Shown here: in pieces, positions 1,518 through 45,060 of the stretch | Layout of the letters: each line of letters starts with the position of its first letter | How positions within the stretch are numbered: position 1 is the stretch's first letter | DNA from: Eledone cirrhosa | Lineage: Eukaryota | Assembly: GCA_964016885.1 (NCBI GenBank) | Contig: OZ024743.1 | Location: 282,720,001-282,784,000, forward strand | Length of the DNA stretch: 64,000 bases | Direction: 5' to 3' | The notes under the pieces: generated by a model | What the model saw: only the letters and a program-made list of their open reading frames with translations | Database searches by the model: none | Told to the model about the DNA's origin: nothing | Made by a program: the position numbers and the translations under genes

Positions 1518-1619
1518 AGTGTTGTGAGAGATGACAAAGCTAAGAGTGAAATTGAAAAAATTAAATATACAGTTCCTACAGAAGTTAAATGAAAGTCTTG
1601 AATGAAATAAAATACTCAC

Positions 1620-1714
1620 GCCACACAAAAAGGCTTTTTGTCATATCCCTTGTAATTCTTCATATTTAAGGTCATTCCACAGACTTCGCATTTGAAGCAA
1701 CTTTTGTGCCATAC
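1620..1714 (-). CDS. LASP1: Internal coding exon (95 nt) of LIM and SH3 domain protein Lasp, C-terminal half of the LIM domain
   Basis: The minus strand reads ttttgcag|GTA TGG CAC AAA AGT TGC TTC AAA TGC GAA GTC TGT GGA ATG ACC TTA AAT ATG AAG AAT TAC AAG GGA TAT GAC AAA AAG CCT TTT TGT GTG GC|gtgagt, giving [32 protein letters not shown]. This matches the LASP-family LIM motif as I recall it ([31 protein letters not shown]). Splice sites are canonical, phase 0 in and phase 2 out. Confidence 0.95.
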
Positions 1715-9336: not shown

Positions 9337-9383
<47 letters not shown>

Positions 9384-9547
9384 CAATATGTAAAGATAAC
9401 ACACCAGAGAGAGAGATAGTGCGCCATCAGTCAAACAGGGAAAAACCACCAGTGTATGGAATCTATAGCCCATGGAAGGCAAAGTAGACACACAATAATT
9501 AAAAGTATAAATCAAAGTGCAAATACGTACCTTGATAACTATCTAAC

Positions 9548-9637
9548 ACACACGTACAAATCCAAAAAGATCTGTTTCACCAACTAATTTGTTGACAGAA
9601 ATGATTAGCCTATGGTTCATCAGCATGTGTAAGGCTA
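9548..9637 (-). ncRNA. Type I hammerhead ribozyme, mirror copy, sense to the Lasp transcript
   Basis: Exact reverse complement of 10158-10247. Confidence 0.85.
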
Positions 9638-10157
9638 TACATTTCAGACAACACTAAAAGAATCTAAAGCGACCATCCAGCCACACGTGGTAGAGAGAAA
9701 TTCACAGCGTGCCTAGGGCAGCAACCAGTGGCCTCTGAGGGACGAGCTGCTAGAAAGAGCAGCCCAAAGCACTCGGAGAAATGTGCTCAACGAAACAGAG
9801 AGAGAGAAGATACTGTTATAAGGAGCGAAATATCACGATAAATTAACGGAGCCATAGACTCTTGCCATTCCCTGTATTATAAAGGGCTCGGGATTCCTTC
9901 TCCTTTGAGCACATTAATGACAGGGAATAGAGAGAGTCTATGACTCCGTTAATTTATCGTGATATTTCGCTCCTTATAACAGTATCTTCTCTCTCTCTGT
10001 TTGGTTGAGCACACTTCTCTGAGTGGTTTGGGCTGCCCTTTATAGCAGCTCGTCCCTCAGAGGCCACTGGTTGCTGCCCTAGGCACGCTGTGAATTTCTC
10101 TCTACCACGTGCGGCTGGACGGTCGCTTTAGATTCTTTTAGTGTTGTCTGAAATGTA

Positions 10158-10247
10158 TAGCCTTACACATGCTGATGAACCATAGGCTAATCATTTCTGT
10201 CAACAAATTAGTTGGTGAAACAGATCTTTTTGGATTTGTACGTGTGT
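10158..10247 (+). ncRNA. Type I hammerhead ribozyme with full stem III and GUA cleavage triplet
   Basis: Stem I ACACATG(10165-71)/CGTGTGT(10241-47). Core CTGATGA 10172-78. Stem II ACCA(10179-82)/TGGT(10213-16). GAAA 10217-20. Stem III CAGATCT/GGATTTG. Predicted cleavage after A10240. Possible pseudoknot TAGCCT(10158-63)/AGGCTA(10184-89). Confidence 0.88.
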
Positions 10248-10506
10248 GTTAGATAGTTATCAAGGTACGTATTTGCACTTTGATTTATACTTTTAATTAT
10301 TGTGCGTCTACTTTGCCTTCCATGGGCTATAGATTCCATACACTGGTGGTTTTTCCCTGTTTGACTGATGGCGCACTATCTCTCTCTCTCTGGTGTGTTA
10401 TTTTCTCTACATTTTGTATTATAAAGGGCTCGGGATTCCTTCTCCTTTGAATACATTAATGACAGGGAATAGCGGGAGTCTATGGCTCCGTTAATTTATC
10501 GTGGTA

Positions 10507-10538
<32 letters not shown>

Positions 10539-12584: not shown

Positions 12585-12945
12585 TGTAAGCTATCGCCGT
12601 ATTTTGACTAAAGAAATTAAAGAAATAATTTAGCCTGATAGTGGGGTTAAGAACCCTCGGAGAAATGGAAAAAGATGAGTATTGACATACATGGGAGTCG
12701 AACTCACATCTTTGGTTATCCGGACCACTGTGCTACCATTTACACCAACACATCATCCGGATAACCAAAGATGTGGGTTCGACTCCCATGTACGTCAATA
12801 CTCATCTTTTTCCATTTCTCCGAGGGTTCTTAACCCCACTATCAGGCTAAATAATTTCTTTAATTTCTTTAGTCAAAATACGGCAATAGCTAACATTTCT
12901 AATAATTTCAAATCCACTCGCTGTTTCGAAAATATTCTTACTTGA
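12576..12945. mobile_element. Head-to-head hairpin element with a tRNA-like head and a ~40-nt one-sided tail
   Basis: 149-bp arms at 12576-12724 and 12756-12904 with few mismatches, a 31-nt loop, and a tail at 12905-12945. (TA)n lies on both sides. Confidence 0.8.
12682..12755 (-). pseudogene. tRNA-like sequence (SINE-type Pol III head), not a canonical tRNA
   Basis: The minus strand reads TGATGTG TTG GTGT AAATGGTA GCAC AG TGGT CCGGATA ACCA AAGAT GTGAG TTCGACT CCCAT G TATGTCA A. It has an A box, D arm, anticodon-like arm, TTCGA T-loop/B box and an acceptor-like stem rich in G-U pairs. Confidence 0.7.
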
Positions 12946-42104: not shown

Positions 42105-42651
42105 TCTATGGGAATGGTCATCAGATGAAGATGGCACAATTGAATAGAAAAGAACAAGACAGAAAAAGAGGTAAACTTAAATTATCCAAATAATGCCACC
42201 ACGTGTGAACCAATTAGACAATGATTTTTTTCTATATCATAAATATAAAATAAGTCAAATGCTTAATTTCAATATTCATAGTCTTAAGTAAATTAACAGA
42301 TGTCACCTCATATAATTTACTTTTCAAGTGTTCCTATGAAGTTAGTTTCCTTTCTAAAAATAATACTACAAATACAACCACAGCTTTTAACAACTCTGAA
42401 CAAGCATTCCACATTTTTAAACATGTGCATGATCATGTGTGTAAATAAAAAGTAATTTCTTTTTTTATTCATGTGTGTATAGGCAGAAAGGAAAACATGA
42501 ATATTTCTTGCAATTGGTAATTAAAATTCTAAATAAATATAGAACATAACAGTATGAAAGGTGGGGATGGGGAGGATGGCTAAAAGTATAAATGGTAGTG
42601 AAGAGAATGATGTTGGTAAATTTGTAAAAATTTTGAAACGATGATCAATAT

Positions 42652-43381
42652 ATAAAAACAAATAACGAAACGAAATTAAATTTTGTTTCGTTTGTAACTC
42701 ACTTTTGTATGACTGACGCTTAAACAATTAAGTTAAAAAATGTACATCCACATATGTATACTGAAATACTAGTATGCATATGAATACACACACGTATACA
42801 TATGTAGATGTACCAAGTTTTTCACTGGTCACTTTACTGTGAGTGTCCAGCTATTCTGTATGTAAACACACAGACAAACCGGTTTTTAGAGTCATACTGG
42901 TTTTTGAGGAAACACCTTTCCTCTATTCTCCAGAAAGCCAGACAAGGAATATTGAACTAGTTTCGTTGTTGTTACAACTCATCAGCAATATTTACCTATC
43001 TTCCGGCCTTTCTGGAGAATCGTAAAAGCACATATCGTTATATGCTTTTTCTATGAAAATTAGTAGTGGGCAGACTAATTTGCATAGAGCGTGAGTACGT
43101 ACCGGTTCAACGGAGACGATAAAAACAAATAACGAAACAAAATTAAATTTCGTTTCGTTTGTAACTCACTTTTGTATGACTGACGCTTAAACAATTAAGT
43201 TAAAAATGTACATCCACATATGTATACTGAAATACTAGTATGCATATGAATACACACACGTATACATATGTCGATGTACCAAGTTAAAACTTGGTACATC
43301 TACATATGTATACGTGTGTGTATTCATATGCATACTAGTATTTCAGTATACATATGTGGATGTACATTTTTAACTTAATTG
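42652..43381 (-). mobile_element. Non-coding hammerhead-bearing retroelement (Penelope-like/retrozyme-like): 467-nt unit, 167-nt direct repeat, inverted 5' copy and TSD
   Basis: Direct repeats at 42652-42819 and 43119-43285. Inverted copy at 43286-43381. TGATCAATATATAAA is duplicated at 42642-42656 and 43380-43394. Confidence 0.9.
42948..42992 (-). ncRNA. Minimal type I hammerhead ribozyme with palindromic stem III and GUU triplet
   Basis: The minus strand reads AATATTG CTGATGA GTTGT AACA ACAAC GAAA CTAG TT CAATATT. It has a perfect 7-bp stem I, a 5-bp stem II, an intact core and an ACTAGT palindrome. Predicted cleavage is between 42955 and 42954. Confidence 0.9.
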
Positions 43382-45060
43382 ATCAATATATAAATTTGTA
43401 TAAATTAAATATGATAATGATGACGACATCAATATATTGTGTTGTTAAGATTTCACCAGCCATATAGGAGGTTTGGAACCCATAAGAAATGTACTGAGTG
43501 TTTTAATGATAGAGCACTAGTCCTACTATGTCGACATTTTTCTGGTGACGAGGCAAAATTTGAACTGAGAAAACACAGCACCAGAGTAGATACTGCAAAT
43601 AATACTATCTTTTTCTCCAACAATTCCACCAATCCATCACTTTGGACCATGAAAGAATGAAAGGCAAAGTTGACCCTAGTAAGATTTGAACTCAAAACAC
43701 AGAGAGAACAAATACTGCAAGGCATTTAATCTGATGCTCTGGCTACTGCCAATTCATTACCTATTTCTATTTCCTTATATTGCATGATTGATACTTACCA
43801 GAATGACATGGCAATTAGTAATAATAATATAGTTTCAAAGTTTCAAATATTTTATTATAAATAACTATGAGGGCAGTCTTTATCTCTGGACTATAAAATA
43901 GGAGAGCTACTGCTGGAAACAATTGACCTAGATATATTCAAATATCATCACCACCTCTCACACAGAACTTATAAATAACAAGAATTGTGAGGCAAGAAAA
44001 ATATGAAATTGTAAGCTGCCCTCTCAAAGACTGGAATTTGGCAATATTCATAATCTGTAAAATAAGGTTTCTTGTTCAATTTTCAATGCCATATAACATG
44101 AAAATATAATTTGTAAAACTTAAGAAATCATTAGCTCACCAACTAGACCAACTATTTTGGCATGACACCATTTTTATTTTAGGTGCAACCTCCACCCCAC
44201 CCCCTAAAAAGGGAGTCATGCCTAAGTGAATTGAGCCAAGATATATATTTAAAAATCACTAAAACCTTTGGCACATTAGAATTTAGTCTATAAGCAATAA
44301 ATTTAATATTCTTTTTTTAACTTGACTCAATCAGAATAGCATCCATGACCTCAGGGCCTCTGAGAAGAATTATCCTTTGACCAGAGACCTGACCTAAATG
44401 TTTGCAGTAGAGTGCATTCAGCTAAGGGCACTGCAAGCACCAGGTGGTGGTGTTAAAGTGGACAACAGATTAATAGATATCAATTGCAGAAGGAAGTTAA
44501 AGTTTGATTATTTAACAAACTGAATTTTTACTTGGTCTAAATTATCTTAAAAAGCTATTGGTTATACAATAGGGACATTAGTATTGACAAGAGGAGCAAT
44601 AATTCTTCATATTTTTCATGATTTGTATGACTTATTTTACTACTGGAATATTCATTTTCCATTGAATTTTCGTTAGTAGCTAAAGTTTATGAGCAATAAA
44701 TTGGATATATTTCTACAATACACAAGATATTTTAACAATTTTTTATAAAATTCCTAATAATATTTGATTATAAAAATACAATAGGATTTTTATAATCAAA
44801 TGGCTATGGGGCCCACAACAGTAAAATAGAAATCAAAGGGGGTCCTTAGGTAAAAGAAGATTTAGATGATGAAATATATTTATCCATTATAAAATCATTA
44901 TAGTTGATTAATATGTTACAATAAACAAACAAAAGCCAACATCCACTAATATATTCTTAGAATGTTAGTACAGCGCTGCACCACCTTTTTGAAACAGTGG
45001 TCCACAAAATTCACAAAGAATATTTCATGGACCACCAAATATAAATTTTGTTTGCAATAT

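Follow-up and report, generated by a model that had tools for sequence, protein, structure and literature searches.

Structure and context of the insertion

The window, a stretch of 64,000 nucleotides of Eledone cirrhosa DNA (contig OZ024743.1, positions 282,720,001 to 282,784,000, forward strand), contains an exon at about 1.6-1.7 kb that matches Lasp from both Octopus vulgaris and O. sinensis at 97% identity. Since exon 1 lies about 19 kb beyond the window, the insertion is located in intron 1 and, exon 2 and the ribozyme both being on the minus strand, the ribozyme strand is sense to Lasp, in agreement with the preliminary description of this DNA. In the following list u1 to u467 denote positions in the unit of the element, and the RNA-sense strand of the window copy is the minus strand.

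1619..1714, minus strand: Lasp exon 2 (LIM domain); the insertion lies upstream of it, in intron 1
42642..42656, plus strand: left copy of the target-site duplication; its last 5 nt also fit the long 3' end of the element
42652..43118, minus strand: full unit of 467 nt (u1 = 43118, u467 = 42652), ending at the fixed long 3' end of the family
42652..42725, minus strand: "tail" of about 70 nt, from the short end (u392-398) to the long end (u467)
42925..43020, minus strand: outer stem, 42925-37 with 43008-20, enclosing the ribozyme
42932..43003, minus strand: type I hammerhead, in which helix I has an internal loop, helix II a conserved loop, and helix III a single pair under a palindromic CUAG cap
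42955..42962, no strand assigned: palindrome of 8 nt over helix III; pairing between two hammerheads predicted (model only)
43078..43085, minus strand: octamer ATGCAAAT, common to a sister family; intact in 99 of 110 loci
43119..43285, minus strand: second unit of the same arm, 5'-truncated (u300-467), preceding the full unit on the minus strand
43286..43381, plus strand: inverted second arm, 96 bp (u298-394), whose outer end is the fixed short 3' end of the family
43380..43394, plus strand: right copy of the target-site duplication; its first 2 nt also fit the element

The direct repeat (42652-42819 against 43119-43285, spacing 467/466) corresponds to 467 + 167 nt, or 1.36 units, as had been described earlier. 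The 96-bp fold-back is present as well and was identified as a Penelope-type second arm; it had been taken for an inverted 5' copy, but the inverted piece represents the 3'-proximal part of the unit. The 15-nt direct repeat TGATCAATATATAAA occurs at 42642 and 43380, and because it overlaps the element by 5 nt and 2 nt on its two sides, the true stagger is 8-15 nt and the earlier figure of 15 bp holds for the repeat only. The copy is young, yet not quite pristine as first stated, since three substitutions and one homopolymer base are private to it (about 0.5%); no private A>G change is among them. Both junctions of the insertion are contained in contigs of run X1; a joint across the site was seen in none of the runs, three of which had no coverage of the flanks.

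The circular fold of the unit gave z = -8.9 against 40 shuffles. No useful open reading frame was found on the circle, the longest ATG frames being of 19 amino acids in sense and 50 in antisense, which upholds the earlier statement on this point. An ORF with reverse transcriptase (RT) and GIY-YIG endonuclease is absent from the unit, and an autonomous Penelope element was rejected for this reason. The insertion is not a product of chance, and the window copy is a young, typical member of a non-coding, hammerhead-bearing family. Having one hammerhead, it would be unable to release a unit-length RNA alone, and is itself probably a dead end. It is of particular use in lying outside a microsatellite and showing the target duplication.

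Two further observations concern the window. The inverted sequence within 43187-43386 would form a 99-bp, 97% complementary hairpin in the Lasp pre-mRNA, a likely ADAR substrate. A weak tRNA match (12683-12754, minus strand, 34.5 bits) lies in a very AT-rich stretch and is possibly the head of a SINE.

The hammerhead motif

The hammerhead core starts at 42985 on the minus strand, and the cut is predicted at 42955|42954, corresponding to u164/165. The Rfam model Hammerhead_HH9 matched over its whole length at 42932-43003 with 37.7 bits (E 8e-8), below its gathering score of 52; a scan at gathering level gave no ribozyme match, and microRNA-like Rfam matches were rejected as fold-back artefacts. 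Helix I comprises 7 bp with conserved flanking loop bases, helix II 4-5 bp and helix III one pair, and the long enclosing stem reported earlier is present. The motif had been called minimal; it is instead a complete type I motif, with the conserved bases of loops 1 and 2 and with helix III. The min-HHR of Penelope elements, as described in PMC4209133, has no helix III, a short helix I whose loop 1 is ill defined and a long helix II, from which the window hammerhead differs in being of the canonical metazoan form.

An energy model of the double hammerhead, weak either way, favoured the dimer when the motifs were isolated (at -7.6 per motif, the closed monomer form being at +0.8), whereas in the full tandem the dimer costs 4.4 kcal/mol. 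In the Xenopus work of a recent preprint (10.64898/2026.07.22.740005), 8 of 9 dimers tested showed no cleavage. In the predicted fold, u23-28 is paired with u417-422 and the pairing spans the u467/u1 joint; the folded RNA would therefore be a cut-to-cut monomer or a circle, and both 3' ends of the DNA copies would be internal start sites.

In 110-113 of 112-113 loci the majority sequence keeps the catalytic core unaltered. The nucleotide preceding the cut is U in 90 loci and C in 23, and A in the sister family; 31 loci have one pair of helix II swapped. The 16 core and loop bases contain no inherited variant, compared with 86 variable sites of 456 overall (p ~0.035), while single-unit changes occur there as expected (13 against 13.1). 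This suggests that the copies which spread keep the ribozyme. Between the family and its sister, six pairs of helices I and II are changed on both sides, all of which represent one family split counted many times. The ribozyme thus appears to be under selection as a predicted self-cutting motif.

Size of the family and its relatives

The exact 45-nt ribozyme motif has 4,843 copies in the 3.0 Gb genome, compared with none for the reversed control, and 2,307 junctions of the long 3' end with TA were counted, so that there are at least 2,307 insertions. Full units measure 465-468 nt in 122 of 123 cases, their GC content is low (35%), and arrays reach 25 units at one locus. The earlier expectation of a recent insertion with multimeric arrays and further genomic copies was thus borne out. 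The units join head to tail with no ORF between them; attachment of all copies to a coding Penelope ORF, which the preliminary description had considered, was not what was found.

Among 42 loci selected for a match to the unit or the ribozyme, almost all outer ends adjoin a TA run, the exceptions seen by eye being L001, L035 and L043. A target duplication of about 12-14 bp was recognized by eye at L013, L043 and L069; at 41 of 62 sites it is hidden in pure (TA)n. The family has the sequence characters of a non-LTR retrozyme, with cleavage and circles predicted.

The sister family is about 60% alike and collinear, keeps the core and loop bases, and gave 12,917 motif matches. Its units (L114:1395-1945; L123-L147) measure 420-540 nt and contain an internal TA run whose length varies; they show the same two 3' ends, here separated by about 60 nt, and a mismatch at the foot of helix II. 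The octamer ATGCAAAT shared by the two families is struck by A>G clusters in the youngest long arrays; an octamer-driven promoter like that of newt satellite 2 would be a possible parallel.

Another hammerhead family occurs in the window itself at 9340-10510. Its helix III is long, and it is built in the same way, two arms diverging in (TA)n with hammerheads at 9623 (minus) and 10172 (plus). It has no sequence similarity to the 467-nt unit. The two families are therefore unrelated in sequence, as had been proposed, but the 467-nt family does not stand alone, given its sister. Runs X4 and X5, which bear two other organism codes, contain the unit (42759-43254) at about 98-99% identity; this may reflect a close relative, a mixed sample or mislabelling.

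Arms and ends of the insertions

Diverging arms were present in 50 of 50 loci with hammerheads on both strands. Among the first 100 long-end sites, 62 carry an inverted arm whose end falls at u388-398, mostly at u393 or u398; of the remaining sites 7 were cut by the region edge, and 11 of the 31 others show an inverted short end further off. One arm ends at the long end and the other about 70 nt earlier, leaving a tail of 69-74 nt, and both arms are longer than one unit at 21 of 100 sites. A linear cut monomer was rejected as the template, since 76 of 100 long arms run through the cut site and the 5' ends show no pile-up there (3 of 98 within u160-170).

The family thus shows a tandem and inverted build with a one-sided tail, which is given in PMC8557442 as a hallmark of Penelope-like elements. 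Moreover, the Anolis element of PMC11167929 was shown in vitro to start at two internal sites on both strands. The retrozyme is very likely moved by Penelope-type machinery.

A probable single template per insertion and clustered A>G changes

Units within one insertion differ at 0.8 positions on average, compared with 11.4 between loci. In 55 of 70 loci the two arms are in agreement at the diagnostic sites, compared with 296 of 5,995 pairs drawn at random (5%), and in the other 15 they differ at 2-5 sites; no arm-specific fixed change was found.

Changes were counted at non-polymorphic sites of 141 loci of the main family (485 segments, 169,811 bases; the sister family had too few loci), and those shared by all units of a locus were separated from those of single units. 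The counts of both classes exclude 76 polymorphic sites, L168, a seeming duplicate of L167, and segments below 50 nt or 90% identity; for the tree, 31 of the 141 loci with short cover were also left out. The shared changes (n = 58) comprised 26 A>G, 11 T>C, 6 C>T and 1 G>A (p 0.0075), whereas the single-unit changes (n = 312) were strand-symmetric, with 34 A>G, 35 T>C, 52 G>A and 43 C>T. In the tree, which comprises 110 loci, A>G exceeded T>C over all branches (80 against 29) and at the tips (34 against 14, p 0.006), with 40 G>A against 26 C>T.

The shared excess rests on three loci, without which A>G and T>C are equal at 11 each. The private changes of these loci are all A>G (10/10 at L174, 3/3 at L173 and 3/3 at L041+42), and a three-locus clade has 5 of 6. 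Genome-wide, the L173 marker occurs in its own 4 units only, on both arms, and that of L174 in 2 units there. The L041 marker is found in 69 units at 7 loci, which indicates that such changes are passed on. G precedes the changed A at 1 of 26 shared A>G sites and at 10 of 34 single-unit sites (p 0.016), the difference from background not being significant (p 0.20); depletion of G upstream of the edited A is the known direction for ADAR (PMC5625713). We consider it likely, judging from these genomic copies, that the clustered A>G changes are fixed A-to-I edits of RNA.

At L174, six of ten private A>G changes are common to a 5'-truncated unit and the units following it. Repeated reading of a circle would explain this one strong case, and separately edited linear units would not; at least two passes over u36-389 appear to have been present from the time of insertion, as judged from the 5'-truncated and the short-ended unit.

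Coding Penelope-like elements and a candidate helper

The coding Penelope-like elements of the genome have RT and GIY-YIG domains and a CxxC motif before the nuclease, and are called Neptune-like after the description in PMC8557442 and not from a tree. Family A shows the build of one long and one short arm in (TA)n, with a tail of 68 nt in 5 of 5 two-arm loci; family D is built in the same way, likewise in (TA)n, but its tail is about 37-40 nt long, from which that of the retrozyme (69-74 nt) differs. The unit has no homology to the ends of coding elements in the 52 loci examined (48 GIY-YIG loci and 4 more), in a partial sampling of families in which 150 of 10,596 candidates were scored.

One locus, L228 (G000:C1:41489000-41496500; L228:653-4389), carries a retrozyme arm of 2.7 units, with its long end, joined to a family D arm. 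At the joint, 39 nt of unit sequence are followed by the last 388 codons of a family D element, which is 95-97% identical to other copies and stops at the short end of family D, in the same kind of TA run. The simplest reading of this chimera would be one event handling both RNAs; being one case, it could also be a deletion between two neighbouring insertions. That the family of L083, L109 and L117 is the helper we judge to be slightly less probable than not.

Other loci touch on these elements. At L031:2518-3341 an older Penelope-like ORF, which is 82% alike to L098/L105/L118, is joined at its 3' end directly to a diverging retrozyme arm, possibly as a second, older chimera with another family. 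The 3' UTR of family C (L106, L110, L115, L116) contains a hammerhead of the same design, with an 8-nt palindrome over helix III and U before the cut, and families A and D carry a degenerate hammerhead core. An open LINE-like ORF of 1,040 amino acids lies at the junction between two retrozyme arms (L071:4788-7910). We take it by its motifs to be an RTE-type LINE; it was rejected as a parent element, since it looks like a LINE and not like Penelope.

Proposed mechanism and alternative readings

The reading we consider probable is that of a retrozyme inserted by a coding Neptune-type Penelope-like enzyme, which would copy one RNA, probably a circle, from both cut strands. Tandem arrays would be transcribed, and adjacent hammerheads, paired by way of the palindromic helix III, would excise a unit which is closed into a circle, by analogy with the retrozymes of mussel, coral and axolotl. 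This structured RNA would sometimes be A-to-I edited, as the DNA copies suggest. The putative helper would nick a TA-rich site with a stagger of 8-15 nt, and reverse transcription would begin on each strand at a fixed internal site of its own, the two sites lying about 70 nt apart, as the ends and diverging arms indicate. Each arm would run for a variable length, often past the cut site and over several units, before the two 5' ends are joined, the product seen in the insertions; the arrays would later be reshuffled by local duplication, of which a few show the traces. It is tempting to extend this to a fuller scenario, in which the enzyme rolls round one edited circle from both nicks, each insertion is the DNA record of a single RNA, editing drives the evolution of the family and family D is the helper, but taken as a whole this is tentative and somewhat less probable than its opposite.

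That the template was a circle we hold to be only modestly favoured. The same element and helper might have used a linear, uncut multimeric transcript, the long arrays growing by unequal exchange and circles being a by-product. Such a transcript explains the lack of a pile-up of 5' ends at the cut site as well as a circle does; uncut RNA was the main in vitro substrate for the Anolis element (PMC11167929), and local amplification is the model of the preprint 10.64898/2026.07.22.740005. Patterned variants inside the arrays of L055+56, L070, L051 and L059 point to local duplication or multimeric templates, so that the homogeneity of an array is by itself no proof of a circle. On the other hand, the passes at L174 have most of their private changes in common, where separate linear units would have been edited separately; the youngest lineage, that of the L041 marker, already has long near-perfect arrays, and at L041+42 no single-unit change was found in 7.3 kb. 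A linear template is accordingly the less likely of the two, at a level that still deserves attention. Considerably less probable is that the A>G excess represents ordinary DNA mutation filtered by selection for RNA pairing, under which a change of A-U to G-U is tolerated. Such selection likewise gives A>G an advantage over T>C, A-U/G-U accounts for 10 of 12 one-sided pair changes, the shared C>T over G>A points the same way, and the excess depends on the three loci named above. Yet A>G and the equally tolerated C>T stand at 26:6 among shared and 34:43 among single-unit changes (p 6e-4), and several L174 changes fall on predicted unpaired bases. The branches made up wholly of A>G at L174 and L173 have no parent in the assembly and fit poorly with a process that yields A>G in 11% of changes; a parent of these haplotypes could lie outside the present assembly.

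The copies might finally be 5'-truncated terminal repeats of a coding Penelope-like element yet to be found, whose insertion footprint would be the same and for which the share of candidates scored leaves room. We regard this as very improbable, and as already largely excluded for the copies examined, in view of the long ORF-free head-to-tail arrays. Moreover, a Penelope protein match lies near only 10 of 166 element loci, and in none of the four inspected does it continue into the unit as its own terminal repeat. Insertion of a retrozyme RNA by a Penelope-type enzyme remains the preferred reading.

Comparison with known systems

The octopus family resembles the metazoan non-LTR retrozymes of PMC7229834 in its low-GC, non-coding tandem units, ranging from dimers to long arrays, in its type I hammerhead, in target duplications above 4 bp and in having no LTR/PBS/PPT build; the axolotl HHR_Amex1 described there likewise has a helix III of one pair with a palindromic tetraloop. 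It differs in unit length, 170-400 nt being given for those retrozymes against 465-468 nt here. Expression and circles were shown for them, whereas for the octopus family they are predicted. In the accessible part of PMC7229834, diverging arms, two fixed ends and edits fixed in DNA do not appear, and editing is mentioned a single time, as something that might account for heterogeneity of the RNA. In the open literature, whose supplements may list cephalopod families, no report was found of octopus retrozymes or of edits fixed in retrozyme DNA, nor was a two-start, two-arm retrozyme footprint or a chimera with a candidate helper.

With Neptune-type Penelope-like elements (PMC8557442, PMC11167929) the family shares partial tandems, an inverted 5'-truncated copy, a tail at one end, microsatellite or AT-rich targets and an internal two-site start on both strands. 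The published tail is of 30-40 nt compared with about 70 nt here, and the octopus retrozyme has, unlike the Neptune type, no ORF, arms that can both be long multimers and a canonical hammerhead. Li, Clavereau and Pollet (2026; 10.64898/2026.07.22.740005) proposed retrozymes to be non-autonomous Penelope derivatives dependent on Penelope-like enzymes; their evidence consists of co-occurrence and sequence homology in vertebrates, whereas that given here is an insertion footprint and one chimera. The return of retrozyme RNA to the genome and the origin of the tandem, inverted and tailed Penelope build are open questions according to that preprint and PMC8557442. The family offers for their study thousands of young insertions, two mapped start sites, a candidate helper and marks which trace single templates.

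The pattern of changes is like that of A-to-I hyper-editing of repeat RNA (PMC5625713), in which A>G changes are clustered in self-pairing repeats with G depleted upstream, and for which the lizard Penelope is named as heavily edited; those edits are in RNA, whereas in the octopus the pattern is seen in the copies of genomic DNA. Should the A>G clusters be edits, cephalopod RNA editing would have been written into germline DNA by way of a mobile element.
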